Below are positions 1 through 64,000 of a stretch of DNA of 64,000 nucleotides, one piece after another. Every line of letters starts with the position of its first letter. The stretch's first letter is position 1. A program made the translations under genes and the position numbers. The notes beneath the pieces are model-generated. The model was not told where the DNA came from. It did not search any database and worked only from the letters and a program-made list of their open reading frames with translations. This DNA is from a virus. The stretch is taken from UHGV virus genome UHGV-0098755. One strand, written 5' to 3'.

Positions 1-246
1 TTTTAATTTAGCAATTGAACCTTTAGCAGTTAATGTAAAAGGAACAATATGCATCATTTTATCGCCCATCTTTAAATCACGGTTAGTATCACCTCCAGAT
101 GTATAGGTACATAAACGAAAACCTGGTTGTTCAATTGCGTCATCAACATGAACTGAAAAAATTTGCGGTATTTTCTTCTTTGGATTTAAGTTTGTAATCG
201 GAAGAGTAGTATCTTCGTCAAATAATTCTGTAATAAGTTCCATCAT
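1..246 (-). CDS. hypothetical protein, partial (3' end beyond window start)
   Basis: Minus-strand frame opening at ATGATG (241-246), translating MMELITELFDEDTT..., runs off the window edge; absent from ORF track because truncated. Confidence 0.5.
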   Translation of the reverse strand, partial: MMELITELFDEDTTLPITNLNPKKKIPQIFSVHVDDAIEQPGFRLCTYTSGGDTNRDLKMGDKMMHIVPFTLTAKGSIAKLK

Positions 247-280
247 AGCCTCTCTAGTGTTTATTCTATTTATAAAATTA

Positions 281-296
281 AAGGCCCGAAGGCCTT
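281..296 (-). terminator. RNA stem-loop with UUCG tetraloop (AAGGCC-UUCG-GGCCUU on the minus transcript); stabiliser or weak terminator
   Basis: Inverted repeat aaggcc/cgaa/ggcctt abutting the stop codon at 296-298. Confidence 0.35.
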
Positions 297-484
297 TAAT
301 AATCTATAGGTAAGAGAGTACGATATATTTCAAACTTTGGACCTTTTTCATAAGCATCAAATGTTTCTGTAAATTTATTATAAGCGTATGCATCTACAAA
401 TTCGAGAATGACTTGTGATACAGAAGTAGAAACATCTCCACCTTCTTTTTGAGCCACGACAATTGTTTCTAAGTAAGCTTTCAT
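296..484 (-). CDS. hypothetical small early protein (62 aa)
   Basis: ORF track; start overlaps ligase stop (ATGA); in T4-like early gene block. Confidence 0.6.
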   Translation of the reverse strand: MKAYLETIVVAQKEGGDVSTSVSQVILEFVDAYAYNKFTETFDAYEKGPKFEIYRTLLPIDY

Positions 485-1941
485 AGACCAGTTACCTCAT
501 GAAAATCGCCAAATACATCTTCGAACGTATTAGCTTTAGTTTTATCTTCACGTAAACGAATCGCAATCGGAAGAAATAATTTAACGTAATCAGTGCGGCC
601 ATCAGATTTTAACCAACCATTGCATTCGCACTCTAGAATTTTTCCAATATAATAATTTTGGTTTTCCATAATGCGAGTACGGTCAAGTTCATGCGATTTT
701 ACACCGGCTTTATCTTTTAAGCCTGAACCAGCATTTACTTTAATTTTTCCACACTCTGATTCAAGAATAAATCCACCTGCTTTAGTAGGGTCTTTACGGT
801 GAGGATAAATTCCTACAATTTTTAAATCAACATCAATTACTTCTTTAAATTTATAGAGATTTTTTGAACGAGCATTTTCCCATAATCCATCGATATTTTT
901 GAGAATAATACCTTCAAGACCTTGGTCAATATACTTTTTATAAATTACCTTAGCTTCATCTAGGTTATTTACTACCTGGTTTTCAATTAAAATTACTTTA
1001 TCATATCCTGATGTCATTTGTTCTAGTTTAGAAAAACGCACATCATATTTTAAACGAAACGCCGGAAGACCATATATTTCTACCAATGGGACATAATCCC
1101 AGACCTGAAACTTCATGCATTGAGCTTCTTTTTCTGAAATAGTTCCCTTTAAAGATTTATTAGCGATTCCATTAGAAGTAGTACGTGATTCAGCTACTTC
1201 GGCGAATTCTTTGGCTTTACTGATTTCAGGAGCACCAAAAAGAAAATCTAAGCCTTCTGGTTCCTTTTTAACTTGCTCATGGTATACCAATTCGCCATCA
1301 ATTAACACACCTTCTGGATGAATCTGGCGAGCTTCAGCAGTCATTTTGATTAATTCTTCCTTAAGAAGATCTAATCCTAGATATTCATTACCAGCTCGTG
1401 ATAAAAGACGAACATCATCTAATTCATCACCTCTAACTTCAGCAAAACACCGAGCTCCATCTGCTTTTAACTGCGCAAAGGCTGGAAACTTGATATTCTT
1501 ATTAATGCCTTTTTCATCATAAGAACTTGCCAGCATTTGAGGTTGTTCAGGAATTAAACCTGGCCAAACTTTATTTGCAATAGATACTGAAGCACCGCAT
1601 TCAAGGTCTCGCATCATAACTCGACGCAAAACTTCAACATCATCCTTTTTACCATCGGTGATATATCCAATTAATTCCTCAATTGCCGCATTTCCAGTCA
1701 ATTTCCGAGTAGCTAACGTGAATTCAATGAAGTCAAGCATATCGGTAAGAGTCAACATTCCAAAACTCTGGGTAGCAATACCAGGTTTAGGCCATTTCTT
1801 GATATAATACTGTAACCCACGAGAATAAGTCAGACGATATACCCGTTTAAGCAATTCATTATCTTTATTCTTTTCAAGAATTGCTTGCTTCTGCTTAGTT
1901 GATCCAATAGATGCTATTTCATTCAGAATTTTAAGAATCAT
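481..1941 (-). CDS. 30: ATP-dependent DNA ligase (gp30)
   Basis: 486-aa ORF; N-terminus MILKILNEIASIGSTKQKQAILEKNK and KADG adenylation motif (AQLKADGARC) match my recollection of T4 DNA ligase. Confidence 0.97.
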   Translation of the reverse strand: MILKILNEIASIGSTKQKQAILEKNKDNELLKRVYRLTYSRGLQYYIKKWPKPGIATQSFGMLTLTDMLDFIEFTLATRKLTGNAAIEELIGYITDGKKDDVEVLRRVMMRDLECGASVSIANKVWPGLIPEQPQMLASSYDEKGINKNIKFPAFAQLKADGARCFAEVRGDELDDVRLLSRAGNEYLGLDLLKEELIKMTAEARQIHPEGVLIDGELVYHEQVKKEPEGLDFLFGAPEISKAKEFAEVAESRTTSNGIANKSLKGTISEKEAQCMKFQVWDYVPLVEIYGLPAFRLKYDVRFSKLEQMTSGYDKVILIENQVVNNLDEAKVIYKKYIDQGLEGIILKNIDGLWENARSKNLYKFKEVIDVDLKIVGIYPHRKDPTKAGGFILESECGKIKVNAGSGLKDKAGVKSHELDRTRIMENQNYYIGKILECECNGWLKSDGRTDYVKLFLPIAIRLREDKTKANTFEDVFGDFHEVTGL

Positions 1942-2207
1942 TGCTCATCCTTCAAGGTTTGGTTTACAGCTCTATTATAAATCAATTCATCATTAAGCTC
2001 AGGCAAAGACTTATGATATGTGGTTCTAACTTTATTTCCTTGCATCCAGTGCTTGATATAAATGAAACCTTGCTCTACACATTTTTTAAAAATTCGTTCG
2101 TCTTTTTGAGCTCGGAATTCTGGATTGCATCTAAAAAATTGATTTACGTGACCGTAATCACGTGTAGTATTACCTTCATTTTCATAAATAGTGTGAACAA
2201 CAAACAT
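1938..2207 (-). CDS. hypothetical protein (89 aa), 30.x family
   Basis: ORF track; translationally coupled to neighbours. Confidence 0.6.
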   Translation of the reverse strand: MFVVHTIYENEGNTTRDYGHVNQFFRCNPEFRAQKDERIFKKCVEQGFIYIKHWMQGNKVRTTYHKSLPELNDELIYNRAVNQTLKDEQ

Positions 2208-3046
2208 TAGAATGCTCCTTGGAAAATATTATCACCACAAGTAGGTCTATTATACAAATACTCTATACCGCCGGGTTTAATATAGTTCCATGTCTGAAAC
2301 GGATGCGTCTGATATGGATGATATAGATGATTATAAGGATTAAATCCAGGAGTTCTCCAGGTAGTGTTCCAAGGAAAAGAATCGTTTTTAATCATCTTTT
2401 CAATTACATCTTTTATAGCTTTTTCACTATCAAAACTTTCTTTATTTTCCTTTGGTGAAAAAAGCTTATTCTCTACATCGTTCCATGTATAAACTCGCTG
2501 AGCAGTTTTTGGAATACTGTCACGTTCCCCTCGAGCCATCCAATAAACAGGAACACTTAATATTTCACTCGCGTGATCGCAGTGGTGAGCGAGATCGTCA
2601 ATATAACAAATTACGTTATATTTCTCTTTTGCCTTTTTGAACAACTCTTCTTTTGAAGAATCATGGCCACACATCAGTACTTCTGAGAAGGCACCAGGAA
2701 AAAGAGCATTCAAATTAAATTGACGATTCAGCAGAGCGTCAATAGAATCACCCAGTGCTGTAACAGCTACAAAATTATAATCTTCTTTTAATTTGTTAAT
2801 TACACACAGAGCATCTTTATATGGAGACAAGTAACGAATAAAATCCGAACGATTGTATTTTTCAATTAACTTGACGCCAAGTTCTTCATCACAATTAAAA
2901 AGTTTACCAGGAGAAATAAATTTTTCATCTTGGATCATTTTTAAAATATGTTCCAACGGAAGATTATATTTCTGAGCAAAATAAGGAAGGCCTGATTGCC
3001 AGCTTAAGCATACTCCATCAATATCAGTTAAAATAGTAGGCTTCAT
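2207..3046 (-). CDS. HAD-superfamily phosphatase/nucleotidase-like protein (279 aa)
   Basis: N-terminal DxDG motif (LTDIDGVCL) typical of HAD hydrolases. Confidence 0.6.
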   Translation of the reverse strand: MKPTILTDIDGVCLSWQSGLPYFAQKYNLPLEHILKMIQDEKFISPGKLFNCDEELGVKLIEKYNRSDFIRYLSPYKDALCVINKLKEDYNFVAVTALGDSIDALLNRQFNLNALFPGAFSEVLMCGHDSSKEELFKKAKEKYNVICYIDDLAHHCDHASEILSVPVYWMARGERDSIPKTAQRVYTWNDVENKLFSPKENKESFDSEKAIKDVIEKMIKNDSFPWNTTWRTPGFNPYNHLYHPYQTHPFQTWNYIKPGGIEYLYNRPTCGDNIFQGAF

Positions 3047-7645: not shown

Positions 7646-7878
7646 AGTACGCCATACACCCTTTGTGCTTCAACTAATCCATCAAAATCCAATTTGAGAT
7701 GTGTTATTTGATCACCATCATCTGGATTCACAATTACTAATACTGAACGAGGAGTTTCGGTAATAACACGAACCGATGTTTCAGGAAATCGTTCAGAAAC
7801 CTTATTTACCAATTCCTGTGCAAATAGTTTAACTTTTTCTTGGAATTCTTTAACAGTAATCGGTTTTTCACTTAGCAT
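7642..7878 (-). CDS. hypothetical protein (78 aa), cd.x
   Basis: ORF track. Confidence 0.55.
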   Translation of the reverse strand: MLSEKPITVKEFQEKVKLFAQELVNKVSERFPETSVRVITETPRSVLVIVNPDDGDQITHLKLDFDGLVEAQRVYGVL

Positions 7879-8399
7879 GTTGATCCCAGCTCCTTACTTT
7901 CAACGTTTTTAACTAATTTGACAGAAACTAATTCAGCATCTTGAGTAATCATTACCGGACCTTCTTCATACTCTTCAAGATATTCTAGAGCTTTCTTTTT
8001 AGCTTCTTCCTTCGTATCAGTTTGAGCATAGATATAAAACATACAACCAGTAATACCTACTACTTTCCACTTAATTTCTTTATCAGTTTTAATTTCAAAT
8101 TTACTTACAGAATCATCTTTTTGAACTTCTTCGAAAAAAGAATATTCTAGCATATAAGCAATTGAAAACAACGGGCTAACTTTATAGGATTCACCCATTA
8201 CATCAACAGCTTTATACCAACAATCATCAATTTCGCGTTTAATGCTAATAACATTTTTCGCAGGATCTATTTTTACTTTAAATGAATTTTCCCCAATAAA
8301 CTGGGCAATTCGTTTATTAGCCCCGCAAGTTTCATTAAAAATATCTTTATATCCAGCTTTAAAGCGATAAACCTTATCTTCTTCAAACCATTCGCTCAT
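7872..8399 (-). CDS. hypothetical protein (175 aa), cd.x
   Basis: ORF track; downstream of an early promoter. Confidence 0.6.
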   Translation of the reverse strand: MSEWFEEDKVYRFKAGYKDIFNETCGANKRIAQFIGENSFKVKIDPAKNVISIKREIDDCWYKAVDVMGESYKVSPLFSIAYMLEYSFFEEVQKDDSVSKFEIKTDKEIKWKVVGITGCMFYIYAQTDTKEEAKKKALEYLEEYEEGPVMITQDAELVSVKLVKNVESKELGSTC

Positions 8400-8737: not shown

Positions 8738-8801
8738 ATTTACCTCACATAATTTTCTTCAAACCAATTAATAATATCCCAAGTTTCATGATGCCAAGCC
8801 A

Positions 8802-12754: not shown

Positions 12755-13924
12755 TTAAAAGTATTTTTTAAAACTCATCATAACTTTATCATCAACATCA
12801 TTATCAATCTGTGCAACAAGGTAAGATGACAGTTCTACTTCTTGTGGCGCGGATTGAACATTATCAGAATTAAGATATTCACGAATCCAAGGATATGGGT
12901 GTTTAACCGGAGCATCGGTAATTGGGCATGGAAGACCACACTGTTTCATACGAGATACAGTTAAGTAATCAATAAAGCTCCACATGCTATTTGTATTTAA
13001 TCCAGGAACATCGCCATCTTTAAATAAATGAACTGCCCAGTCTTTTTCTTGACGGTTAACTTCCATGAAAATATCAACTGCTTCTTGTTCACACTCTTGA
13101 GCAATTTTAACCCATTCATCACCATCAGTACCGGATTGAAGTTGACGAATAATATATTGAGTGCCTTTAAGGTGAAGCTGTTCATCACGAGCAATGAACT
13201 TCATAATCTTGGCATTACCTTCCATGATTTCCATGTTCTTATGGAAGTTAAAGGTACATGCGAAAGATACATAAAAACGAATAGCTTCCAATGCGTTGAT
13301 TACATGAAGGCAAAGATAAAGAGATTTCATTAATGCTCGTTTAGTACATTCAACAACTTTGCCTAACTCTTCTTTACGAAATCCTTCTGATAAAATTCCT
13401 TCATAATCTTCAACCGCATTCTGATATTCACGAGTCTTAACTAGAACATCATCATAATAACGACCAATAGATTCAGCACGTTTCATGATAGCTTTATCTA
13501 ATACAATCTCATCAAATACCTTTGACGGATCAGTATAAAGATTTCGCATGATATGAGTATATGAACGACTGTGAATAGTTTCACTAAAAGTCCATGTAGC
13601 AACCCATGTATCAAGACTTGGGTCTGAAATTAATGACATAAGTACAGCAGAAGGCGCACGACCCTGAATGCTATCCAAAAGTGATTGATACTTCAGATTA
13701 TTAGTAAAAATATCCTGCTGATATTGAGGAAGCTTATTAAATTGTGCAGCATCCATCATCAAGTTTACTTCTTCAGGACGCCAGAAAAATGACAACTGCT
13801 TTTCGGTTAAATCTTCAAAAACTTTATGACGTTGAATATCATAACGCGCAATACCAAGACCTGAACCAAAAAACATAGGTTCTTTTAAAACATCAACTGG
13901 ATTTGTATTAAAAACTGTAGACAT
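12755..13924 (-). CDS. nrdB: ribonucleotide reductase small subunit, uninterrupted (no intron)
   Basis: Continuous 389-codon ORF, MSTVFNTNPVDVLKEP..., ferritin-like RNR beta subunit. Confidence 0.95.
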   Translation of the reverse strand: MSTVFNTNPVDVLKEPMFFGSGLGIARYDIQRHKVFEDLTEKQLSFFWRPEEVNLMMDAAQFNKLPQYQQDIFTNNLKYQSLLDSIQGRAPSAVLMSLISDPSLDTWVATWTFSETIHSRSYTHIMRNLYTDPSKVFDEIVLDKAIMKRAESIGRYYDDVLVKTREYQNAVEDYEGILSEGFRKEELGKVVECTKRALMKSLYLCLHVINALEAIRFYVSFACTFNFHKNMEIMEGNAKIMKFIARDEQLHLKGTQYIIRQLQSGTDGDEWVKIAQECEQEAVDIFMEVNRQEKDWAVHLFKDGDVPGLNTNSMWSFIDYLTVSRMKQCGLPCPITDAPVKHPYPWIREYLNSDNVQSAPQEVELSSYLVAQIDNDVDDKVMMSFKKYF

Positions 13925-13958: not shown

Positions 13959-14762
13959 TCACATATTATGTATAAGCACTTCAGTCTGAAATGATGCACC
14001 TTTCTTTTGCTTCCTATACATGGTTTCAAAATATTCAATTTTGAAATTATTAGAAAGGGCCCAATCTTTTAAAATATAATTATTAATATCGTCTGATAGA
14101 TTATTAGTGATAATAAATTTAGACTTTGACCGTTTAATTTTATCTAATAATTCTAATTCATCCTTTTCTTCCCATCCTGAATATTTAAATTTAGTAGAAA
14201 GATAAGGCGGGTCAATGAATAAATTTTTGTTTTCAAAATCTAAATCTCTGAATGATTTATTACTAAATGTAAATCGGTGTTGTCTATTTTTAAATTCAGA
14301 AAATTTATCCTGCTGAGACTTATTAAAAGAAGTTCTAGAATACTTGGCTCTATTGGCGAAAGCCGCGTTATAGTTCCCATTACTAGAAAATCGGATTAAT
14401 GAACTGAATGAAAATAAATGTAGAACATAAAGATATAGTCCGTTTTTGGTTTTATCGTATTCTTTTGACAGATTATAAAAAGGTGCTGAATCTTTGTCAT
14501 TCAAATTGAAGTCTTCAATAATTTGAACTATATCATTAATTGAAGATGATTTCATCTTTTTATACATGTCTATAAGAGGAGTATTAATATCATTACATAT
14601 AACATTTCTTTGACAATTCATAGAAAATCCAAGACCGCCACAAAAAGCATCCAAAACGGGCTTATCATCAAAGCGGTTTGAAAATTGTCTAATAAATGGC
14701 ATATACTTATGCTTTGCACCTGGATATGTTATGGCAGGTAGGTCTTTCATATTATTTCTCAT
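13959..14762 (-). CDS. Dam-family N6-adenine DNA methyltransferase paralog (267 aa)
   Basis: Motif X YPGAK, motif I LDAFCGGLG, NDI, motif IV DPPY; collinear similarity to the canonical Dam at 60725-61504. Confidence 0.85.
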   Translation of the reverse strand: MRNNMKDLPAITYPGAKHKYMPFIRQFSNRFDDKPVLDAFCGGLGFSMNCQRNVICNDINTPLIDMYKKMKSSSINDIVQIIEDFNLNDKDSAPFYNLSKEYDKTKNGLYLYVLHLFSFSSLIRFSSNGNYNAAFANRAKYSRTSFNKSQQDKFSEFKNRQHRFTFSNKSFRDLDFENKNLFIDPPYLSTKFKYSGWEEKDELELLDKIKRSKSKFIITNNLSDDINNYILKDWALSNNFKIEYFETMYRKQKKGASFQTEVLIHNM

Positions 14763-17376: not shown

Positions 17377-17593
17377 ATTGTTTTTCCGTTAAAACAGTAA
17401 TATCGTAGTAACAGTCAGAAGAAGTTTTAACTGTGGAAATTTTATTATCAAAATACTCACGAGTCATTTTATGAGTATAGTATTTTTTACCATAAATGGT
17501 AATAGGCTGTTCTGGTCCTGGAACTTCTAACTCGCTTGGGTTAGGAAGTGTAAAAAGAACAACGCCAGAAGTATCTTTAAATCGTAAAATCAT
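17330..17593 (-). CDS. hypothetical protein (87 aa)
   Basis: ORF track; overlaps the preceding ORF by 47 nt, so one start may be mis-set. Confidence 0.5.
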
Positions 17594-17901
17594 ATTGCCA
17601 TTTTCCCTTTAATTGCTGGATGCGATTCATAATTTTCAAGGATAAAATCTTTCGGTTTCATGTATTCAGTTAACCAGTAAAGCTGTGTTTCGGTGTCACA
17701 ATTTCCAAACTCTATAGGCCAATCAATTTTAAGTTCACATAGTTCTTTAGGCTCACGACGTAAAATTTCTTTACATTGCTCAGTATGATTCATATAGATG
17801 TGAGTATTACCACCAGAAAATATCAAATCTCCTGGGATAAGATTACACATCTTAGCTACAATATGAACTAACGAAGCATATGATGCAATATTAAATGGAA
17901 G
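17590..17901 (-). CDS. td: thymidylate synthase, exon 2
   Basis: Encodes [21 protein letters not shown]...KGKMAI; the first codon follows the intron's terminal G at 17902. Confidence 0.9.
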
Positions 17902-18917
17902 CATTATGTTCAGATAAGGTCGTTAATCTTATCCCGGAATTATATCCAGCTGCATGTCACCATGCAGAGCAGACTATATCTCCAACTTGCTAAAGCAAGT
18001 TGTCTATCGTTTCGAGTCACTTGACCCTACTCCCTAAAGGGATAGTCGTTAGGCATTTATGTAGAACCAATTCCACTTATCAGATTTTACACGGTAAGTA
18101 ACTAATCCGGATGAAATTTCAAAATATCTAGCTGCATCAGCTGCACATTCAAAAATAATCCCATCACATGAAATCTTTTTAATATTATTAGGCTTTTTAC
18201 CTTTCATCTTTTCTGATATTTTAGATTTAGTTTTGTCTGAATGCTTATGATTAAAGAATGAATTATTTTCACCTGAACGATTTCTGCATTTACTACAAGT
18301 ATAAGCAGAAGCTTGTATGCGAACACCGCATTCACAAAACTTATGGGTTTCTGGATTCCAACGCCCGTTTTTACTTCCGGGTTTACCGTAAAGAGCTTTC
18401 CGACCATCAGCGCCAAGCTTAAGCATCTTAGCTTTAACAGTTTCAGAACGTTTCTTAATAATTTCTTCTTTTAATGGATGCACAGAATATGTATCACCAA
18501 ACGTTGCATCAGCAATATTGTATCCATTAATTTTAGAATTAAGCTCTTTAATCCAAAAATTTTCTCGTTCAATAATCAAATCTTTCTCATATGGAATTTC
18601 TTCCAAAATAGAGCATTCAAACACATTACCGTGTTTGTTAAAAGACCTTTGAAGTTTTATAGAAGAATGGCATCCTTTTTCTAAGTCTTTAAAATGCCTC
18701 TTCCATCTCTTTTCAAAATCTTTAGCACTTCCTACATATACTTTATTGTTTAAAGTATTTTTAATCTGATAAATTCCACTTTTCATAAATACCTCTTTAA
18801 ATATAGAAGTATTTATTAAAGGGCAGTCCTACAATTTAGCACGGGATTGTCTACTAGAGAGGTTCCCCGTTTAGATAGATTACAAGTATAAGTCACCTTA
18901 TACTCAGGCCTCAATTA
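17902..18917 (-). mobile_element. group I self-splicing intron of td (1016 nt) carrying the I-TevI gene
   Basis: Starts UAAUUGAGGCCUGAGUAUAAGGUGACUUAUACUUG... after exon-1 GGU; ends ...AUG before exon 2; the length matches my recollection of the T4 td intron. Confidence 0.9.
18049..18786 (-). CDS. I-TevI GIY-YIG homing endonuclease
   Basis: 245 aa, MKSGIYQIKNTLNNKVYVGSAKDFEKRWKRHF... GIY-YIG N-terminus, zinc finger and C-terminal DNA-binding region. Confidence 0.95.
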   Translation of the reverse strand: MKSGIYQIKNTLNNKVYVGSAKDFEKRWKRHFKDLEKGCHSSIKLQRSFNKHGNVFECSILEEIPYEKDLIIERENFWIKELNSKINGYNIADATFGDTYSVHPLKEEIIKKRSETVKAKMLKLGADGRKALYGKPGSKNGRWNPETHKFCECGVRIQASAYTCSKCRNRSGENNSFFNHKHSDKTKSKISEKMKGKKPNNIKKISCDGIIFECAADAARYFEISSGLVTYRVKSDKWNWFYINA

Positions 18918-19466
18918 ACCCAAGAAAACATCTACTGATCGTTGATACCATTGTAAATCAAGATAACCATTACGCACATTAAACTGATAGAACATATGAC
19001 AGGGCGGTAATGCCATTTGATTGATTTCAGCTGGATTCCATGCTGAAACGATTTGACGTCGATCAGTTGGTAATTTTTTAATACGATCAATAGTTTCAAC
19101 TAATTGATCCACACCACCGAAATCACGCCATTGTTTACCGTATATAGGACCAAGTTCACCACTATGATATCCTAGGTCTTTAGCCTGGTTTTCATAGTTA
19201 TCGTCCCAAATAGTTTTACCTTGAATAAGACTACCATGAGTGCGAAGACGTAAATCATTAACATTGGTAGAACCGGAAATAAACCATAGAAGCTCAGCAA
19301 TGCAAGCTTTCCAGGCGAGCTTTTTGGTTGTTACCGCAGGAAAACCTTTGGTTAAATCCCAACGCAATTTAGTACCGAACAAAGCAATTGTTCCTGTGCC
19401 TGTTCGGTCATCGGTTTCGTAGCCATTTTCAAAAATGTCTTTAATTAAATCTTGGTATTGTTTCAT
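18918..19466 (-). CDS. td: thymidylate synthase, exon 1
   Basis: 183 codons MKQYQDLIKDIFENGYE...QRSVDVFLG; the frame is closed by the intron's first UAA. Confidence 0.9.
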
Positions 19467-19510: not shown

Positions 19511-19858
19511 TTAATACGGTTTAGCATCAAATTTTCTCTCAATTTCAGGCGCGAAATATAATTCTTTACCGCGTTTGGAAAAACGACCAATAATATGATA
19601 ATTATTCTCATCAAACGTGATATTACCAATATCCATAGCTTTCAACCAAATATCGATATTTCTATCCAGCTTTATGTCAAAATTCCAATACGGAGAACTA
19701 TTACCGAAAATACTGCAAGCGGATTCAGTGAAACAACTGCTATAAATCTTGTCTTTAGGAACTACTAATTGATAGACGCCTTTAATAAACTGAGGACCCT
19801 GCCACTTTGGCTGTTTTGCGTCTTCTTCTAATAGAATAGGGTAATAATTAAAATTCAT
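19511..19858 (-). CDS. uncharacterised protein (115 aa from ATG at 19858; track lists 119 aa from GTG at 19870) between frd and td
   Basis: ORF track; no recognisable motif; separate SD/promoter-like sequence before td. Confidence 0.6.
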   Translation of the reverse strand: MNFNYYPILLEEDAKQPKWQGPQFIKGVYQLVVPKDKIYSSCFTESACSIFGNSSPYWNFDIKLDRNIDIWLKAMDIGNITFDENNYHIIGRFSKRGKELYFAPEIERKFDAKPY

Positions 19859-19877
19859 ATTTTCCGCCACGCGTTAT

Positions 19878-20704
<827 letters not shown>

Positions 20705-20715
20705 ATTATCTCCTA

Positions 20716-21048
20716 TTAAAAAGGATCAGGAACATATCCACTAGCTTTAATCATTTTGATTAACGTTAGCAGTCCTTTATTAACTGCTTGTGAGATTTCA
20801 TTAAAAACTTCATCACTAAAAAGTTCTAACACACCCTTCTGAACTTTTAATTTACACCCAACAATTTCGTCATCACCTATAGTAAATTCGTTTCCGCCAA
20901 TTCCACCGAAAAACTTAATTACACCAGTTAACTGTTTTCCACGAGAATATGGGTCATGTGATAAAGTAATATGAGTCACCCCAGGTACAGTTTTAAATTG
21001 GCAGCGGATGTTTACTTGGGCAATTCCAGTTACATGAATGTCAGACAT
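20716..21048 (-). CDS. hypothetical protein (110 aa), frd.2-like
   Basis: ORF track. Confidence 0.6.
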   Translation of the reverse strand: MSDIHVTGIAQVNIRCQFKTVPGVTHITLSHDPYSRGKQLTGVIKFFGGIGGNEFTIGDDEIVGCKLKVQKGVLELFSDEVFNEISQAVNKGLLTLIKMIKASGYVPDPF

Positions 21049-22011: not shown

Positions 22012-22054
22012 ATTGTTTTCCTCTTTAATCGTCAGCAGTATTGCCGATAGTTGT

Positions 22055-22084
22055 ATAGTACCATAAAGCTTTATGCTTGTAAAC
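22055..22084 (-). promoter_or_regulatory. putative early promoter (-35 GTTTAC, 18-nt spacer, -10 TACTAT) with conserved leader
   Basis: gtaaac at 22079-22084, atagta at 22055-22060; near-identical module at 38802-38831 and 42664-42693. Confidence 0.45.
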
Positions 22085-22107
22085 CGTTTTGTGAAAAAAT
22101 TTTTGAA

Positions 22108-22134
22108 ATAAAAAAGGGGACCTCTAGGGTCCCC
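22108..22134 (-). terminator. intrinsic terminator after gene 32 (GGGGACC-loop-GGUCCCC plus U-tract)
   Basis: Hairpin at 22116-22134, A-run 22108-22115 on the plus strand. Confidence 0.6.
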
Positions 22135-22156
22135 AATTAATTAGTAATATAATCTA

Positions 22157-38882: not shown

Positions 38883-38887
38883 TAAAA

Positions 38888-42153: not shown

Positions 42154-42426
42154 TCATAGTTCAATCTCAGCGATTTTCATTTCATTACTATTAATAGCCG
42201 CTTTAAGACTATCTGAAAGAATTACATTCCAGTGGTCATTCATATGACCATTGACTAAGCGTGTAATTTCTTCGGGAGTTGAAAAATAAGGCGTATCAGA
42301 CTCCCAGTGCGATAGTCCCAAGCGAGTATAAATCATACCTTCATCATCGCTAGAATATTCAACTGACACAAACTCATCAGTTATTTTATGTTTAGCGTAA
42401 TAAAATTTAAATTTCATTTTACTCAA
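42154..42426 (-). CDS. hypothetical protein (90 aa)
   Basis: ORF track. Confidence 0.55.
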   Translation of the reverse strand: MSKMKFKFYYAKHKITDEFVSVEYSSDDEGMIYTRLGLSHWESDTPYFSTPEEITRLVNGHMNDHWNVILSDSLKAAINSNEMKIAEIEL

Positions 42427-42629
42427 TAATCCGCTAAAAGATCGACGATTGCATCACGAAGACACTTATTCGCAATACGTTTAAGAGCAATTTCAGTTTC
42501 TGGGGCATTTTGAATAATCATTGAATTCAATTCAGCCTCAGCAAACTGAAGTTCTTTAACTAATTCAGCTTTATATTTTCCTTGTCCTTTCTTAGCTTTT
42601 GCTCGTTTTAGTTCAGCTGTAGTAAACAT
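42423..42629 (-). CDS. hypothetical protein (68 aa from ATG at 42629)
   Basis: GGAGAATAAA Shine-Dalgarno before MFTTAELKRAKAKKG...; the track's 102-aa version reads through the upstream promoter. Confidence 0.55.
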   Translation of the reverse strand: MFTTAELKRAKAKKGQGKYKAELVKELQFAEAELNSMIIQNAPETEIALKRIANKCLRDAIVDLLADY

Positions 42630-42663
42630 TTTATTCTCCAAATCTGTATCAGTTGATAGTTGT

Positions 42664-42693
42664 ATAGTACCACAGTCCTTGTGGTATGTAAAC
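42664..42693 (-). promoter_or_regulatory. putative early promoter (-35 GTTTAC, 18-nt spacer, -10 TACTAT), spacer palindrome CCACAAGGACUGUGG
   Basis: gtaaac at 42688-42693, atagta at 42664-42669. Confidence 0.5.
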
Positions 42694-42712
42694 CGTTTTG
42701 TGAAAAATTTTT

Positions 42713-43270
42713 TTAAATGGAAAGATACCATCCGTTGTAGTTGCTTTTTCTTACAACCTTACGAAGGTCTTCTCTATCACCGATGAACTTCGGAGTGTAC
42801 TGGATGACACCTGGATAAATTTCTTTAGTGTTGAATATAATTATACAGTCAGCGACTTGATGATTCAGAATGGGCCCTAGATTTATTCCAGAACCGTATG
42901 GATACTCTCCGCTGCATCCTGTTGTTACAGAAATCCAACGTGAGTCAGTTTGGTGTGTCTTAACTTCTACACGAAGCCCGCAGTATCTTGGATGCGCCAA
43001 TACATCCCATGCGTATGTATACGGGTCATTAACATCCTCTTGGCCTTTGTTAACATACCCGCTTAGCCAATCTGCTACAAAAAACTCTGCATACACAGCG
43101 ATACGGCATCTTTCGATGACTTCTGCTTTATCCTGATTTGGATTTTGTTTTAAAGAGTATCTTGCTGTATCAGCAATTTTGACCTTCATTTCACTAGTCA
43201 AGTCATTGTTCGACATGGTAAATGCCGGAATCTGAAACAGTCTCTGTAAACCCGGATTCGTTTTCTGCAT
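42713..43270 (-). CDS. denB: endonuclease IV
   Basis: 185 aa, position between ndd.x genes and rIIB as in T4. Confidence 0.8.
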   Translation of the reverse strand: MQKTNPGLQRLFQIPAFTMSNNDLTSEMKVKIADTARYSLKQNPNQDKAEVIERCRIAVYAEFFVADWLSGYVNKGQEDVNDPYTYAWDVLAHPRYCGLRVEVKTHQTDSRWISVTTGCSGEYPYGSGINLGPILNHQVADCIIIFNTKEIYPGVIQYTPKFIGDREDLRKVVRKSNYNGWYLSI

Positions 43271-46945: not shown

Positions 46946-46975
46946 ATTATACCACATCCTTGTGGTAAAGTAAAC
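46946..46975 (-). promoter_or_regulatory. early promoter (-35 GTTTAC, 18-nt spacer, extended -10 TGGTATAAT)
   Basis: gtaaac at 46970-46975, attata at 46946-46951; spacer palindrome CCACAAGGAUGUGG. Confidence 0.55.
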
Positions 46976-48792
46976 TATTGGCTCATCCATTCTTTACGAA
47001 GGTCAGCATTATCTCCCATGAGCATTTCAAAAAGTTCTTTCCAATTCTCAGGAAGTTTAACAACATCATATACTGGATTTTGAATCATCTCACGATATTC
47101 AGATTTTTCCAAAGAGCCAAGTCCCTTAATATAACGGATGTTATGTTTAGGTAGAGCATCTTTGGCACTCTCATATTCAGCGACTGTATAAAACCATTCT
47201 TGTTTTTTACCGACCTGAGCGATGATTACAGGAGTTTTGACAAAGCGAATTCTTCCTTGTTCAAACAGTTCTGGCCAATTACTGAAAAATCCGAGCAGAG
47301 AAGGATAAATGCTTCCTAGACCATCGTGGTCAGCGTCAGTCATAATAGCAATATTATGATAATTCAAGTTTTCGGCTTTTTCACCAAGAACTAATCCAGT
47401 GATTGCGCAAATATCAAACAGTTCTTTGTTTTTAAGCATATCAGCATATGACATACCCCAACTGTTGAGAACTTTACCACGTAATGGATAACCACCATGA
47501 AGTTCTTTATCACGAACATCAATAAGATATCCAATAGCAGAATCACCCTCAGTCAAGAAAAGAGTAGTATCAGCATCTTTACCACAAAGATTCGCTTTGA
47601 TATGTTTATGAACCTTAGCTTTAGAAGCCTTTTTAGCTGCTTTAGTTTCTGCTGCTTTTTCTGCCGCCAATTTACGAGCTAATGCTGCTTCAATAATCGG
47701 CATCAAAATCGCTTCATTATTCAAAATAGCACGTGAAATCTTTTTAGCATCAAGTTGAATATGACTACGGATTTCACCAAAAGGAGAAGTAAGTCGTTCT
47801 TTAGTTTGAGAATCAAATCGCATGTTTTTCATATCACGAACAAACATAACGATAGTCAAACATTCTTTAACGCGTGCTTTAGTTACATCAATTTTGAACT
47901 TGCGTTTGATTTGTGGAATAAGGTCTTCACAAATATCATCCATAACACAGTCAATGTGATGGCCACCATTCTTAGTATGAATGTTATTGACGTACGTCAA
48001 CTGACGAAAACCATCCGGTGAACGACCAACCGCAATAGAACAGTTTTCTTGTTCTTGAACGATAGCATGTTCATCATATTGGCGTGCATATTTCTTAAAA
48101 TTACCCTGAACCTTTTTACCATTAAAGGTAAATTGAATATCAGGATAAACTACTGCAAGTGTCTGGAGACGATCCAGTGTAATGTCAAGATAAACTTGGG
48201 ACAACTCATTAGTTTCAAATGACATAAAATCAGGAATGAAAGTAACACGAGTTCCTTTCCATTTTCCAGGAATATCTTCCCATGATTTATTTTCCATGCC
48301 ATTTGAACAACGAACTACAATATTATTTTGACCATCACCAGTTTCACCGACAAACATCACAGAAAAAATGTTTGTCAAACTAGAACCAACACCATTCATA
48401 CCGCCAGTGACGCGTTCTTTATCATCACCGAAGTTACCACCTGCTTTTGGAATAGTCCATGCAGCAACAGGACCAGGAATTTCTTCACCGGTAGGTGTTT
48501 TAACCATAGCCTGTGGAATACCGCGACCGTTATCTTCAACTGTTACTTGATTGTTTTTAATAGTAACATTAATTTTATTTGCGAATTTAAACTTAGTACG
48601 AATACCTTCATCTACTGAGTTATCGATAATTTCATCAATAAGCTTAACAAGACCAGGTACATACTGAACACTTTCCCATTTACCAAACAGAAAGCGCTCA
48701 TGCATTTCATTAGCTGAAGAGCCAATGTACATGCCGCTACGCTTTTTGATATGTTCAATATCGCTCAGAATTTTAATTTCATTCTTAATCAT
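46975..48792 (-). CDS. 39: DNA topoisomerase II large subunit gp39, unsplit (ATPase plus C-terminal region in one ORF)
   Basis: 605 aa from ATG at 48792 (MIKNEIKILSDIEHIKKRSGMYIGS...); continuous through the region that is gene 60 in T4. Confidence 0.95.
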   Translation of the reverse strand: MIKNEIKILSDIEHIKKRSGMYIGSSANEMHERFLFGKWESVQYVPGLVKLIDEIIDNSVDEGIRTKFKFANKINVTIKNNQVTVEDNGRGIPQAMVKTPTGEEIPGPVAAWTIPKAGGNFGDDKERVTGGMNGVGSSLTNIFSVMFVGETGDGQNNIVVRCSNGMENKSWEDIPGKWKGTRVTFIPDFMSFETNELSQVYLDITLDRLQTLAVVYPDIQFTFNGKKVQGNFKKYARQYDEHAIVQEQENCSIAVGRSPDGFRQLTYVNNIHTKNGGHHIDCVMDDICEDLIPQIKRKFKIDVTKARVKECLTIVMFVRDMKNMRFDSQTKERLTSPFGEIRSHIQLDAKKISRAILNNEAILMPIIEAALARKLAAEKAAETKAAKKASKAKVHKHIKANLCGKDADTTLFLTEGDSAIGYLIDVRDKELHGGYPLRGKVLNSWGMSYADMLKNKELFDICAITGLVLGEKAENLNYHNIAIMTDADHDGLGSIYPSLLGFFSNWPELFEQGRIRFVKTPVIIAQVGKKQEWFYTVAEYESAKDALPKHNIRYIKGLGSLEKSEYREMIQNPVYDVVKLPENWKELFEMLMGDNADLRKEWMSQ

Positions 48793-48844
48793 CACTTATC
48801 CTCGTTTGGTTTCGGGAATATTATACTCCAATAATCATAAAGCT

Positions 48845-48862: not shown

Positions 48863-49131
48863 TATTTAAAACGAATAGTCGAATCCTTGAAGAATAGTCC
48901 AGAACATACTGTTCCTTCTACTTTCTGCCCAGTAGGTCCAATAGCACGAAATCCAGTATGCTGGAAATCATTTTCAGAGCAACCGAACCAATTATATCCA
49001 GTGATTTCAATATTAGTAAAACCACTTGAAGACAAAACTTTGGTTGCATTATCAGCATCAGTACATCCTATTAAAGACACTGCTAATACTAATGCTGCAA
49101 TAGAACGATTAATATATTTCATAATTTTCAC
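48862..49131 (-). CDS. putative lipoprotein (89 aa)
   Basis: Signal peptide with lipobox LIGC (MKIMKYINRSIAALVLAVSLIGCTD). Confidence 0.6.
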   Translation of the reverse strand: MKIMKYINRSIAALVLAVSLIGCTDADNATKVLSSSGFTNIEITGYNWFGCSENDFQHTGFRAIGPTGQKVEGTVCSGLFFKDSTIRFK

Positions 49132-49499
49132 TTAAATTTAATGGCTTGAAGAAGACTAATAACTCTCAAGCGGCTTCTTTCATCTTTAACTGTAAAGGAA
49201 AGAGGGTCACCAGATTTCATAGTGATAGTGCATTCAAAATCAAAATTTTCGGGAACTTCTTCGAAGAAGTCAAATTCTTCAGCATAAATTAGAACATTAC
49301 TCTGAAAACTGTGAAGAATTTTTCCGTCATTTCCAGATGCTGTACTAATCATCGTAACATTATGACCTTTCATATCTTCAACGATAAATTCGCTTGTAGA
49401 TATTACAGCATTAATAGAACCATTCCTATAAATAGCAGACATTAGATATTTCTTTTCTTCGCCTTCGCGAATACGATATTTCTTACCGATTTTAAACAT
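49128..49499 (-). CDS. hypothetical protein (about 123 aa from ATG at 49499)
   Basis: The track ORF starts at GTG 49505; ATG two codons downstream follows an AAGGGTG Shine-Dalgarno. Confidence 0.55.
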   Translation of the reverse strand: MFKIGKKYRIREGEEKKYLMSAIYRNGSINAVISTSEFIVEDMKGHNVTMISTASGNDGKILHSFQSNVLIYAEEFDFFEEVPENFDFECTITMKSGDPLSFTVKDERSRLRVISLLQAIKFK

Positions 49500-49501
49500 A
49501 A

Positions 49502-49678
49502 TCACCCTTTAAGTAAGTCGTAAAATCCACCATTCACATGCTTAGGAGCGGAAACTAACCGAATAGCAATCCGATGACAATCAGGACATACATCAGTATC
49601 CCTTTCAGAAATTTTCTTGATTTTTTCGTATTCTTTTGCGCAGTCTTTGGATTGACATTTATAATCATAAAGAGGCAT
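49502..49678 (-). CDS. zinc-ribbon protein (58 aa), below ORF-track cut-off
   Basis: MPLYDYKCQSKDCAKEYEKIKKISERDTDVCPDCHR... two CxxC pairs; stop overlaps the next start (ATGA). Confidence 0.55.
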   Translation of the reverse strand: MPLYDYKCQSKDCAKEYEKIKKISERDTDVCPDCHRIAIRLVSAPKHVNGGFYDLLKG

Positions 49679-50328: not shown

Positions 50329-50607
50329 TTAATTGAACAGTGGAGCGATACGTTTCAGAAGAGTAGCAGCACCTTTGGCGAATTTTACATCATGAAAAAC
50401 AGTTTCTTCTGTAACAACTCGAGCTTTAATATTTTCACAATCCCAATTTTTACGAACAATCTTCAAAAGCTGCAGTAAATCTTTACATTCAGCAATATCG
50501 ATAACACATCCACGAGAATCTTCCATTATCGCACGATAACCGTAAGCCATACCATAATCGTTGAAAGATTGCTCGATGATAATTAAGTTTTCCATTTTAT
50601 TCTCCAA
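50329..50607 (-). CDS. hypothetical protein (92 aa)
   Basis: ORF track; downstream of a palindromic promoter/leader module. Confidence 0.55.
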   Translation of the reverse strand: MENKMENLIIIEQSFNDYGMAYGYRAIMEDSRGCVIDIAECKDLLQLLKIVRKNWDCENIKARVVTEETVFHDVKFAKGAATLLKRIAPLFN

Positions 50608-51257: not shown

Positions 51258-51800
51258 TTAATTTAAAATAGCTACCACCGCACTACGAGGTACTACACTA
51301 AAATCACCTGCATGAACAACGTTCAGAAGTTCAACACCATCTTCAATCCATTGGTCTGTTACCCAACCACAGACCGAAATAAATGGAGTCTTGATAGCTA
51401 CTGCATGAGTCAAAAGGTCAGTAGGATCGCATTCTTGAAAGAGGATAAGCTCTGCTTCAAAGACTATAGTTTTAATTACTTCATCATTATCTAAGCGATG
51501 TGCTCGAATCACGTAAGCTTTATTCTTATCATACCAGTTACTTTTTGAAAAGCTTTTAACCACAAACTCGCCTTCACCAAAAGCATTAGTCAATGCTTTA
51601 TAACCCAAATTTAGTTCAGTAGTTTTAATTTCAGTTTCAACCAGTTTGTAGGTTTTGCCAATTTCGATGGTCCGAGCAGTCATAAATGTTTCCTTAATTT
51701 CTAATGGTTTAACAAGAGTGCCGTACATGCTTGCTATATCCATATCAAACGGTTTATCTACAGGATTCGGTGTGTATTCAGGATTATAATTAAATTTCAT
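51258..51800 (-). CDS. MotB paralog (180 aa), motB.1-like
   Basis: C-terminal GWVTDQWIEDGVELLNVV homologous to the preceding ORF. Confidence 0.6.
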   Translation of the reverse strand: MKFNYNPEYTPNPVDKPFDMDIASMYGTLVKPLEIKETFMTARTIEIGKTYKLVETEIKTTELNLGYKALTNAFGEGEFVVKSFSKSNWYDKNKAYVIRAHRLDNDEVIKTIVFEAELILFQECDPTDLLTHAVAIKTPFISVCGWVTDQWIEDGVELLNVVHAGDFSVVPRSAVVAILN

Positions 51801-59741: not shown

Positions 59742-59951
59742 TTAAATTACATGACTATTTATAATAAATTCTCGCGGAACGTTAAAATATCCAATTTTAG
59801 TTAATATAACAACATCACCATTAATAATTACCGGAGAATAATCTTCTGGAGCATTAAATTTCCAATGGGCTCTAATATTATATCCATCAGAACCAAATGC
59901 TCGACTAGCCGGTCTCCCGGCTTTTTGCCATGCGTAGAAATCAAATTTCAT
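59742..59951 (-). CDS. hypothetical protein (69 aa)
   Basis: ORF track; occupies the soc-56 interval. Confidence 0.55.
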   Translation of the reverse strand: MKFDFYAWQKAGRPASRAFGSDGYNIRAHWKFNAPEDYSPVIINGDVVILTKIGYFNVPREFIINSHVI

Positions 59952-60142
59952 TTTGAATGCTCTATAATTAATTTTAAAGCTTCTTCACTGACAAAAATTT
60001 CGTCAGGACCTTCTATAACTTCAACCATATGAAGTTGATTAGTTAAGAGCTCACACACGAGCTCTTTGTTATAATCTTTAAATAGCTGGTCAATACGTTT
60101 CTTATGGGCTTTCTTAAGCTGACGTTTATTTAAACGAGCCAT
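59948..60142 (-). CDS. hypothetical protein (64 aa)
   Basis: ORF track. Confidence 0.55.
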   Translation of the reverse strand: MARLNKRQLKKAHKKRIDQLFKDYNKELVCELLTNQLHMVEVIEGPDEIFVSEEALKLIIEHSK

Positions 60143-60660
60143 TAATAGCCTCGGTCTTGACGAGCGAAATTTTCAGCATTTTTCAGATAATAAAGTTTAA
60201 AGATTTCTTCAGCTGACATTCCAAGAGCAATGAATTTATTCATGAAAAAGTGAAATTGGTCAATTAGTTCAAATTTAATTTCAAGTTGATCTTCAGGAGA
60301 TAAATCTTGAATTTTCTTGGATTGCATTTCAGAATAACGTTTCTTCCAAGGTTTCCATACAGCAGAAGCTTCTTTTTCGCCATTGCTCATACCACCAAGA
60401 GAAGTATATAGCTCGCGAGTTTCGTCTGCGATATAATCGTCTTGGTTTCGCAGCCAAGCAAGAACTTCTCCCGCAGTTTCAAGTGAATCGGGATGACGAT
60501 TTGTTTCTGGTTTATCGTTAGCCAAACGAATCTGTAAATGCCGCTGCATGTCAAGCATAACCTGCAATGGGTCAATACTGTGCATAATATACTCAGCATA
60601 TGCACGATTTGCTTTATCAACACCTTCGATCAAATGAGCACATTCATTAAAGTAAGCCAT
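60142..60660 (-). CDS. 56: dCTP pyrophosphatase gp56 (MazG-like)
   Basis: 172 aa from ATG at 60660 (MAYFNECAHLIEGVDKA...); the track ORF starts 5 codons upstream. Confidence 0.9.
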   Translation of the reverse strand: MAYFNECAHLIEGVDKANRAYAEYIMHSIDPLQVMLDMQRHLQIRLANDKPETNRHPDSLETAGEVLAWLRNQDDYIADETRELYTSLGGMSNGEKEASAVWKPWKKRYSEMQSKKIQDLSPEDQLEIKFELIDQFHFFMNKFIALGMSAEEIFKLYYLKNAENFARQDRGY

Positions 60661-60724
60661 TATTTTTCCTTTCAATTCATCAATAAGTTAAATAATTATA
60701 TCATTTGAATATGTAAGCAATTAA

Positions 60725-61513
<789 letters not shown>

Positions 61514-62799: not shown

Positions 62800-62964
62800 T
62801 TACTCTTCTTTTTCTTTAGATTCCTCTTTTTTCTTTTTAGGAATCTGTTCAGGACCTTTATTTACTACAGCGCCTGACGTTGTTCCAGTAGAGATATTTT
62901 CAGGATTACCACCTGAATCTCCAGCGACCATATCTTCTTTGATAAATTCTTTAAACGTTTTCAT
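62800..62964 (-). CDS. small hypothetical protein (54 aa), 61.1-like, below ORF-track cut-off
   Basis: MKTFKEFIKEDMVAGDSGGNPENISTGTTSGAVVNKGPEQIPKKKKEESKEKEE. Confidence 0.5.
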   Translation of the reverse strand: MKTFKEFIKEDMVAGDSGGNPENISTGTTSGAVVNKGPEQIPKKKKEESKEKEE

Positions 62965-62976
62965 ATTAGCCTCTAA

Positions 62977-63270
62977 TTATTCACCTACCACTTCAGCGAT
63001 GATATTTTTATTATTGAAGTTTTTATCACAATACAGAACGTAATTATACTGCATTACACCACCAGACTTAAGCTGTTTTTGTACTTCAGCTTTCATTTCA
63101 GGGTGATCACGCTCAACAATATTCATAATATCTGCTTCAATCTGAGTTTCAACCTCAGTCTGATCTGCAGTCATAGACCATTCGCACAAATCTTTATCAT
63201 AACCTGCCATAGCAGGCTGAGCAGCACAAGAAGCCAAAGCAAAAATTGCAGCAAAAACAAATTTTTTCAT
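62977..63270 (-). CDS. sp: Spackle periplasmic protein (superinfection exclusion/lysozyme inhibitor)
   Basis: 97 aa with N-terminal signal peptide MKKFVFAAIFALASCAAQPAMAG. Confidence 0.8.
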   Translation of the reverse strand: MKKFVFAAIFALASCAAQPAMAGYDKDLCEWSMTADQTEVETQIEADIMNIVERDHPEMKAEVQKQLKSGGVMQYNYVLYCDKNFNNKNIIAEVVGE

Positions 63271-63330
63271 GATAATCTCCTCAGTAGTTTATGTTTATAT
63301 AGTATCTCAATTTCCAACAAAAGTAAACAG

Positions 63331-63630
63331 TTATTTTAAAACTTCTGCGTAATCACATGTTACAAACTGTTTCTCTAGCTTAACGATCTTACGAAAATAC
63401 CTTTTACACTGACGAATCTGTCGCTTCGTAGGACGTACAGCAAACTTAATAAATTCCACTCGACCAAATGGAGGACTTTCTTCTGCTGGAATATCTAACA
63501 CCAATTCCCACGTATCTGCAATAAGTGCTTTAAATTGTGTATTTTTCCTGACGTTATACGGAGTAGGTTTAAATAAAACAATATGCATATTATCCTCGGC
63601 AATCCACTTCACATACTTTCTTGTCATCAA
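63331..63630 (-). CDS. hypothetical protein (99 aa)
   Basis: ORF track. Confidence 0.55.
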   Translation of the reverse strand: MMTRKYVKWIAEDNMHIVLFKPTPYNVRKNTQFKALIADTWELVLDIPAEESPPFGRVEFIKFAVRPTKRQIRQCKRYFRKIVKLEKQFVTCDYAEVLK

Positions 63631-63772
63631 TGAAAGCTTTAACTAATGCTTTATTAACTTCAGCATACTGAGTAGTAGCCCATTGAACGTCATCTTTCAT
63701 CATTGTGGTTTCTTTAGTAAACATGCTTTCGTTCTTAAACCACCCCATAAAAACTACCTTTACCAATTCCAT
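63590..63772 (-). CDS. dmd: Dmd antitoxin (discriminator of mRNA degradation)
   Basis: 60 aa, MELVKVVFMGWFKNESMFTKETTMMKDDVQWATTQYAEVNK... Confidence 0.8.
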   Translation of the reverse strand: MELVKVVFMGWFKNESMFTKETTMMKDDVQWATTQYAEVNKALVKAFIDDKKVCEVDCRG

Positions 63773-63801
63773 AACAATCTCCTCATTTAACCAACAAGAC
63801 T

Positions 63802-63831
63802 ACTATACCATAGTCTCGTCAGCTTGTAAAC
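63802..63831 (-). promoter_or_regulatory. putative early promoter (-35 GTTTAC, 18-nt spacer, -10 TATAGT)
   Basis: gtaaac at 63826-63831, actata at 63802-63807; -10 flanked by inverted repeat AGACUA/UAGUCU. Confidence 0.5.
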
Positions 63832-64000
63832 TAAAATTTTAATTCATTCGCCAAAGCATCTAACTGAGCTCGAGTGGATTCATTTCTTTGATAGCGGTTC
63901 TGTTCAGCCTGAATTTGTTGTGAACCTGCTACTTCACTCACTTCAGTTGGAGTAGAATCTTGTTCAATTTCTACCCATTTCTGATTTCCTTTTTGAACAC
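63831..64000 (-). CDS. partial CDS (C-terminal end; 5' part beyond window), possibly gene 41 helicase by position
   Basis: Open minus-strand frame ending ...QNRYQRNESTRAQLDALANELKF with stop TAG at 63831-63833. Confidence 0.4.
   Translation of the reverse strand, partial: VQKGNQKWVEIEQDSTPTEVSEVAGSQQIQAEQNRYQRNESTRAQLDALANELKF

Follow-up and report, generated by a model that had tools for sequence, protein, structure and literature searches.

The stretch of DNA analyzed here (the window) comprises positions 1 to 64,000 of the virus genome UHGV-0098755, corresponding to about 38% of the phage genome and to that third of a T-even genome in which plasticity is greatest. Its genes are laid out as in bacteriophage T4:

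1..64000, no strand assigned: T-even (Tequatrovirus) backbone; a single collinear blastn chain with 102 of 114 T4 entries at full length.

The blastn chain runs through T4 positions 125,260 to 168,903 and then 1 to 20,781, from the 5' end of alt to the 3' end of gene 41, with identities per T4 block of 75–98.6%, the majority between 94% and 97%. Of the 114 T4 genes or exons lying wholly inside this interval, 102 are present at full length, three are partial, and nine are absent, and the order is kept throughout; tblastn matched 105 entries in unchanged order, with a median amino-acid identity to the T4 proteins of 97.8%. In a base-by-base comparison with four references, T4 (NC_000866), T2 (AP018813), T6 (NC_054907), and vB_Eco_BGP (OZ035849; hereafter BGP), 91.1% of the window aligned with T4 at 94.7% identity, and the corresponding identities were 94.3% for T2, 94.6% for T6, and 95.2%, over 95.3% aligned, for BGP. 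Between the references themselves, the same interval is 94.2% identical in T4 and T2 and 95.1% in T4 and T6. Because it is as far from T4 as T2 and T6 are, the window represents a sibling lineage of the classical T-even phages. The sequence-only reading had described a phage distinct from the T4 reference, and nothing approaching 100% identity to T4 was seen. Its description of nearly all genes as T4-like in order and length stands overall, the exceptions being gp37, with 1205 amino acids (aa) against 1026 in T4, and a fused gene 39. Some 5.7 kb of the window has no T4 counterpart, 12 open reading frames (ORFs) of the window are lacking from T4, and about 5.2 kb of T4 DNA outside gene 37, summed from the blastn alignments, is missing from the window. 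All window-specific ORFs fall in existing PHROG families. Among the accessory genes of a hydroxymethylcytosine (HMC) lifestyle, those for the gene 56 dCTPase, alc, denA, denB, and arn are present, and 42, a-gt, and b-gt lie outside the window.

The relationship to other T-even phages changes along this backbone. Across 128 bins of 500 nucleotides (nt), the best reference is BGP in 50, T2 in 35, T4 in 27, and T6 in 16, and many loci are 97–100% identical to T2, T6, or BGP instead of T4. Mismatches to the four references are distributed heterogeneously along the window (chi-square 995, 309 degrees of freedom, p=5e-73), and all 14 possible split patterns among the four are populated, which together indicate recombination rather than descent along one tree. 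Since the nearest relative flips at a sub-kilobase scale, we regard the mosaic as genuine.

Where the window departs from T4, homing endonucleases account for much of the difference, and the following features are involved:

12755..13924, minus strand: intronless nrdB, 389 aa; the equivalents of T4 exon 2 and exon 1 meet at 13257/13260.
23066..23164, no strand assigned: short spacer between gene 32 and gene 59, with segG (T4 147,909-148,541) absent by blastn and endonuclease queries.
46975..48795, minus strand: unsplit gene 39 for the topoisomerase II large subunit, 605/606 aa, 99.7% identical to T2 gp39.
59742..60142, minus strand: two small ORFs of 69 and 64 aa (phrog_5773 and phrog_5782) in the segF slot, also in T2.
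60142..60675, minus strand: gene 56, dCTPase, of the T2/BGP type; 98–99% identical to T2/BGP and 69% to T4.
17590..19466, minus strand: td, with exon 1 at 19466-18918, the intron at 18917-17902, and exon 2 at 17901-17590 including the stop codon.
18049..18786, minus strand: homing endonuclease I-TevI, 245 aa, within the td intron; 95% identical to T4.

T4 has six homing-endonuclease loci in this interval, and the window departs from it at five of them, namely the nrdB intron with I-TevIII, mobE, segG, mobA, and segF. A search with the T4 genes and nine endonuclease queries confirmed that seg and mob genes are lacking (mobE, segG, mobA, and segF are all absent), and the nine queries retrieved no homing endonuclease other than I-TevI from the window, I-TevIII included. 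The missing elements sit exactly at the insertion sites tabulated for the T4 homing endonucleases (Edgell et al. 2010, Table 1; PMC2988022). Uninvaded alleles, from which the endonuclease ORF is absent, are found at nrdA/nrdB, 32/59, gene 39, and soc/56, with two of these slots filled by other ORFs: a second Dam-like methyltransferase (Dam2) between nrdA and nrdB, and the two small ORFs between soc and 56. Intronless nrdB and unsplit gene 39, both anticipated by the sequence-only reading, were borne out in detail: nrdB is a single 389-aa ORF in which the T4 exons abut, and the segments equivalent to T4 gp39 residues 1-473 and gp60 residues 27-160 are contiguous, with no 50-nt bypass, 60.1, or mobA. 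As summed from blastn, the five elements make up about 3.7 kb (71%) of the T4-only DNA outside gene 37. T4 is an oddity among the T-even phages in carrying 15 homing-endonuclease genes (PMC2988022), and the lack of T4's endonucleases here is the normal T-even state. Among the conserved genes, divergence from T4 is greatest in those that endonucleases target, namely gene 56 (SegF) and nrdB at its 5' end (MobE); the 5' part of nrdB is the most diverged of that gene, at 83% nucleotide identity to T4, and the 5' end of nrdB is the published MobE target (PMC2790892).

The sixth locus is occupied. The td gene is interrupted by a 1016-nt group I intron at the T4 insertion site, with the same exon junctions and about 99% identity to the T4 intron in alignment; it matches the Rfam model Intron_gpI with 38.9 bits (E=7.6e-8), under the gathering score of 50. 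Judged by insertion site and sequence, this would be a mobile td group I intron with an intact GIY-YIG ORF. I-TevI is the sole homing endonuclease gene in the window, and both it and the intron had been missed by the sequence-only reading; given this intact ORF, the window is not free of homing endonucleases. Identity of the td exons to T4 decays away from the intron, and the last ~120 nt are only about 60% identical to T4 and BGP-like. The pattern looks like a co-conversion tract left by past homing into a BGP-like td gene, BGP itself being intron-less at this site; such a footprint is expected of intron homing (PMC2988022).

Two adenine methyltransferase genes of the Dam family are present:

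13959..14762, minus strand: Dam2, Dam-family N6-adenine DNA methyltransferase, 267 aa (PF02086); likely start at 14750.
60725..61504, minus strand: the canonical dam gene of T-even phages, coding for 259 aa with 97% identity to T4 Dam.

An extra methyltransferase had been proposed earlier, and Dam2 indeed lies between nrdB and nrdA in addition to the ordinary dam gene. It belongs to the D12 class and matches PF02086 with 85.1 bits against a cutoff of 22. Its position is the slot that holds nrdB.1 and mobE in T4; this slot is empty in T2, contains mobE in T4 and T6, and contains Dam2 in the window. Full-length homologues occur in eight of 50,697 phage records, five of them about 96–97% identical, and the BGP homologue is 81% identical in amino acids and 82.5% in nucleotides. 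Among 5.8 billion proteins Dam2 forms only four clusters, and in every context retrieved, including variants of 76–81% identity in more distant T4-like contigs, the gene lies between nrdA and nrdB. It is the only rare feature of the window. At the canonical locus, T6 (NC_054907) has no dam between genes 56 and 61 (15638-17453 of the retrieved locus), and a tblastn search with T4 Dam found no match in the T6 loci retrieved.

What might a second Dam-like enzyme contribute to a T-even phage? The nearest solved structure is that of T4 Dam (PDB 1YFJ, 1Q0S; E=3.6e-37, 34–36% identity). The two proteins share the PF02086 fold signature and the FCGGL and DPPY motifs and differ in gene position, T4 Dam being encoded between 56 and 61 and Dam2 between nrdA and nrdB. 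In all four Dam2 clusters the S-adenosylmethionine (AdoMet) motif FCGGL/FCGGLG and the catalytic motif DPPY are invariant, and the enzyme is probably active. Residues K11, F111, S112, and R130 (T4 Dam numbering) are conserved in Dam2. The recognition hairpin is partly conserved (K11, F111, S112, R116, R130), with P126 replaced by A or S and a six-residue insertion after R130. K11, F111, S112, R116, P126, and R130 are residues that we take to function in DNA recognition by T4 Dam, roles reportedly described by Horton et al. in 2005; our literature searches turned up no residue-level text on the DNA contacts of T4 Dam. We speculate, with considerable doubt, that Dam2 methylates a site other than GATC and thereby shields this sub-lineage from adenine-methylation-sensitive restriction or defence systems that fall outside the cover given by canonical Dam and glucosylated HMC.

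A further major difference concerns the long tail fiber:

31158..34775, plus strand: gene 37, distal long tail fiber, 1205 aa; T2-like shaft and T4-type C-terminal domain.
34359..34631, plus strand: tip segment of gp37, unmatched at the nucleotide level in T4, T2, T6, and BGP.
34803..35354, plus strand: T4-type gp38 of 183 aa, with 95.6% identity to the T4 protein; T2, T6, and BGP carry an unrelated, adhesin-type gp38.

The protein exceeds its T4 counterpart by 179 aa. Residues 1-968 are 71.5% identical to T2 and 60% to T4, and residues ~972-1205 are T4-type, including a collar region that is 100% identical to T4. The altered gp37 tip noted from the sequence alone can now be delimited, with T4 residues ~907-978 replaced and extended by the tip segment. 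On either side of this segment, at ~34353-34382 and ~34637-34663 (residues ~1066-1075 and ~1161-1169), gp37 carries more TSSFDYGTK and HTHTVGIGA units than the T4 protein does, and these units lengthen the His-rich needle. On the basis of these alignments we describe gp37 as a chimera, with a T2-like shaft and a T4-type tip that would be served by the T4-type gp38. No record in the phage collection spans gene 37 beyond 87% coverage and 83% identity. A similar tip occurs in 13 phage records, the best match being phage F2 at 96.8%. The exact 48-mer of the tip was not found in IMG/VR, and a 32-mer matched one 5.5-kb contig in the JGI metagenomes (PPYE01645373.1), which has a related gp37 tip (94%) on a different shaft; these searches with tip k-mers in IMG/VR and the JGI metagenomes yielded no independent recovery of the whole genome.

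The remaining differences are small cassettes among the early genes, with about ten gains or losses beyond the six differences listed by the sequence-only reading:

7872..8399, minus strand: 175-aa ORF between cd.2 and cd.3, phrog_3710; not in T4 or T2, 99–100% identical in T6 and BGP.
8769..8779, no strand assigned: junction at which cd.4 and most of cd.5 (T4 133,651-133,969) are missing, by blastn and T4 gene search.
19511..19870, minus strand: 119-aa ORF between td and frd, phrog_1928; not in T4, 96–98% identical in T2, T6, and BGP.
20459..21048, minus strand: two ORFs between frd and frd.1, of 81 aa (phrog_3183) and 110 aa (DUF7247/phrog_3566), from ORF and family matches.
42154..42731, minus strand: two ORFs between ndd.6 and denB, one of 90 aa (phrog_2390) with 99% identity to its T6 counterpart and one of 102 aa (phrog_4535) with 96% identity to its T2 counterpart.
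49128..49505, minus strand: 125-aa ORF between 39.1 and 39.2, phrog_622; not in T4.
50329..50607, minus strand: ORF of 92 aa (phrog_3720) lying between cef and motB; of the four references, T2 alone has it at full length.
51258..51800, minus strand: 180-aa ORF replacing motB.1, phrog_2333; the last 32 residues of its product show 56% identity to MotB.
62964..62977, no strand assigned: junction between 61.1 and sp from which gene 61.2 is missing, as it is in RB3, RB5-RB10, and others.

The ORF predicted between frd and td was thus recovered, in T2, T6, and BGP as well as in the window. A junction lacking 61.2 is common, RB3 being one example. A 124-nt segment of T4 between 30.9 and rIII (130,659-130,782) is missing at 5392/5393, where no ORF is affected. 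The 32-aa segment common to the 180-aa ORF and the adjacent MotB (50693-51181, minus strand; E=2e-12) coincides with a DNA repeat, D6 (50775-50818/51328-51371). We also considered whether the 175-aa and 125-aa ORFs, frd.2, and goF form one paralogous family; they have weak PHROG matches in common, and since pairwise BLASTP found nothing, we do not claim such a family.

A repeat search revealed a family of promoter–terminator elements in the same intergenic DNA:

22030..22143, minus strand: terminator plus T4-type early promoter repeat between 32 and frd.3, resembling the early promoter and stem-loop (PeSL) elements.
38777-38890, 41914-41991, 42639-42752, 50614-50687, 21308-21383, and 5009-5072: related copies.

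Members are 64–98 nt long and combine a G+C stem-loop terminator with an early promoter of the form GTTTAC-N17-18-TAnnAT, a motif present in families D1-D3 and D5 of the repeats; two of the copies also hold a G+C stem-loop with a run of T, at 38862-38883 and 22110-22135. Early-promoter motifs of the T4 type number 16 on the minus strand, where 1.4 are expected, and a generic sigma70 promoter scan showed no enrichment (60 against 67 expected). At four cassette edges a repeat copy is no more than 40 nt away (8397/8430, 21314/21327, 42627/42639, and 50588/50614), and most cassettes lack a repeat on at least one side. The combination of early promoter and stem-loop has been proposed as a mechanism of modular shuffling (Arbiol et al. 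2010; PMC2839356). An Rfam scan of the whole window returned nothing at gathering thresholds, the td intron appearing only at relaxed ones, and a tRNA scan was empty, as expected for this region of the T-even map.

Taken together, the modules occur in a combination found in none of T4, T2, T6, and BGP, in agreement with the mosaic backbone proposed earlier. Among the four references, T6 and BGP also carry the 175-aa ORF, T2 alone has the 92-aa ORF, and I-TevI occurs in T4 and T6; the gp38 type recurs only in T4, and Dam2 only in BGP. The differences do cluster at known hotspots, as had been suggested: five of the six homing-endonuclease loci, the rest being the tail-fiber gene and cassettes of whole ORFs in the DNA between early genes. 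At most of them it is T4, and not the window phage, that carries the unusual state.

Where does this sequence come from? Over 6,804 and 23,618 bases the window is 100% identical to contig k127_35778 (168,827 bp) of ENA assembly ERZ917836, derived from run ERR1190715 of project PRJEB12123, a human gut metagenome, which we located through two exact-protein look-ups. In view of this identity, we regard the source as a metagenome-assembled phage rather than a demonstrated isolate; the earlier proposal of an isolate other than T4 thus holds in that the phage is not T4 (94.7%), and its isolate status does not follow. The coordinates of the matching loci point to a 127-nt overlap between the two ends of the contig, whose arbitrary start lies within the window. 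By our own arithmetic this overlap suggests a complete circular assembly of about 168.7 kb.

With respect to taxonomy, the International Committee on Taxonomy of Viruses advises at least ~70% nucleotide similarity (identity multiplied by aligned fraction) to the type species for membership in a genus, and at least 95% over the full length for membership in a species. Calculated on the 64-kb window only, similarity is 0.86 to T4, 0.85 to T2, 0.85 to T6, and 0.91 to BGP. On this window, gene order and similarity place the phage within the genus Tequatrovirus, and the value of 0.86, likewise for the window only, lies below the 95% guideline for the species Tequatrovirus T4. The phage is an ordinary, previously undescribed member of the genus, and as an uncultured gut Tequatrovirus it is probably distinct at the species level.

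In conjunction, these analyses lead us to propose, with a probability of roughly 90%, that the window belongs to a natural T-even phage (Tequatrovirus), a sibling of T4, T2, and T6, whose differences from T4 are explained by three known processes acting on a collinear backbone. T4 holds selfish homing elements at five sites at which the window phage is in the uninvaded state, and the latter does have the td intron with I-TevI, flanked by its putative co-conversion footprint. Early-gene cassettes would have been gained, lost, and replaced in hyperplastic intergenic regions, probably through homologous recombination between terminator/early-promoter repeats and between conserved flanking genes. 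Domain shuffling in the tail fiber may have joined the T2-like gp37 shaft to a T4-type receptor-binding tip that depends on the gp38 chaperone and bears a variant head. Pervasive homologous recombination among co-infecting T-even phages could further explain why the nearest relative changes every few hundred bases. The model builds on the observed anatomy, identities, module matrix, and phylogenetic incongruence, and the recombination mechanisms it invokes are those we infer from published work on T4 and RB49.

Several considerations weigh against this proposal. Only four of about 22 indel edges abut a repeat, and promoter repeats and indel edges are alike confined to intergenic DNA, which confounds their association; PeSL-mediated shuffling of the cassettes is for this reason plausible only. 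The base-by-base comparison comprised four genomes, and some parts of the window may have a closer relative elsewhere. As this is the most plastic third of the genome, whole-genome identity to known phages may exceed 94–95%. Finally, the source is a short-read metagenome assembly, so some of the mosaic joints could be assembly chimeras.

The last point leads to the alternative that survives best, that the mosaic is partly an artifact of a chimeric contig stitched from at least two co-occurring T-even phages. The sequence is identical to a MEGAHIT-style k127 contig from the human gut, and the long near-identical stretches common to T-even phages favor mis-joins. Yet genes are intact across every joint, the exact Dam2 protein recurs on nine contigs and the exact gp37 on four, several of these contigs being 50–200 kb long, and the contig ends overlap by 127 nt, as they would in a complete circular assembly. 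Equally fine mosaics exist in cultured isolates, as the sharing patterns of T4, T2, T6, and BGP illustrate, and both the tip variant and Dam2 are known from cultured phages. Given the intact genes at the joints, the recurrence of exact gp37 and Dam2 proteins, and the mosaicism of cultured T-even phages, we consider a chimera improbable.

A marginally smaller chance attaches to the possibility that the window represents an already described T-even phage, be it T2, T6, an RB phage, or another sequenced isolate. We compared the window, in three parts, by megablast with a collection of 50,697 phage records ending in August 2025. About 760–1,090 records matched each part, chiefly T4-like coliphages; more than 1000 records match, 480 of them with 80% or more of the first 25 kb covered and an identity of 95–99%, and each individual module has a close match somewhere. 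Against this, the best products of coverage and identity for the three chunks are about 0.92, 0.91, and 0.95, gene 37 is matched at no more than the coverage and identity given above, and the combination of modules is unlike that of T4, T2, T6, or BGP; no record in the collection exceeded ~96–97% identity over any 14–25 kb chunk. Identity and module content rule out T4, T2, T6, RB phage, and BGP as the source. That the window might simply be T4, or a laboratory descendant of T4 carrying a few indels, is hardly credible: the gene order, the full-length genes with their high median protein identity, and the T4-type gp38 would fit, but substitutions occur in every block at a distance equal to that of T2 and T6, 5.7 kb lacks a T4 counterpart, and many loci are nearly identical to T2, T6, or BGP.

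A natural sibling of the classical T-even phages, the reading that we prefer, is a case of textbook T-even genome plasticity. The result is mainly a negative one in which no new biology is needed: one more uncultured gut Tequatrovirus is added, its differences from T4 are explained by published mechanisms, and at the majority of polymorphic loci it is once more T4 that stands apart. Two leads of practical interest emerge, namely the rare second Dam-like methyltransferase and the gp37 chimera, which may serve host-range engineering.

How does the window phage compare with its best-known relatives? With T4 it shares an identical gene order (102 of 114 entries at full length), the T4-type gp38, the C-terminal collar of gp37, and the td intron with I-TevI, whereas the nrdB intron with I-TevIII, nrdB.1, mobE, segG, mobA, 60.1, the gene-60 bypass, segF, cd.4/cd.5, and 61.2 of T4 have no counterpart here. 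T2 (AP018813) resembles it in the unsplit gene 39, intronless nrdB, the ORF between td and frd, the two ORFs of the segF slot, the type of gene 56, the gp37 shaft, and the ORFs of 92 and 102 aa; the td intron, Dam2, and the 175-aa ORF are missing from T2, which carries an adhesin-type gp38 and another gp37 C-terminus. BGP, the best overall match in the phage collection, likewise encodes a Dam2 homologue between nrdA and nrdB and shares most of the small cassettes, but it differs in possessing an nrdB intron with full-length I-TevIII, cd.4/cd.5, 61.2, and an adhesin-type gp38, and in lacking the td intron.

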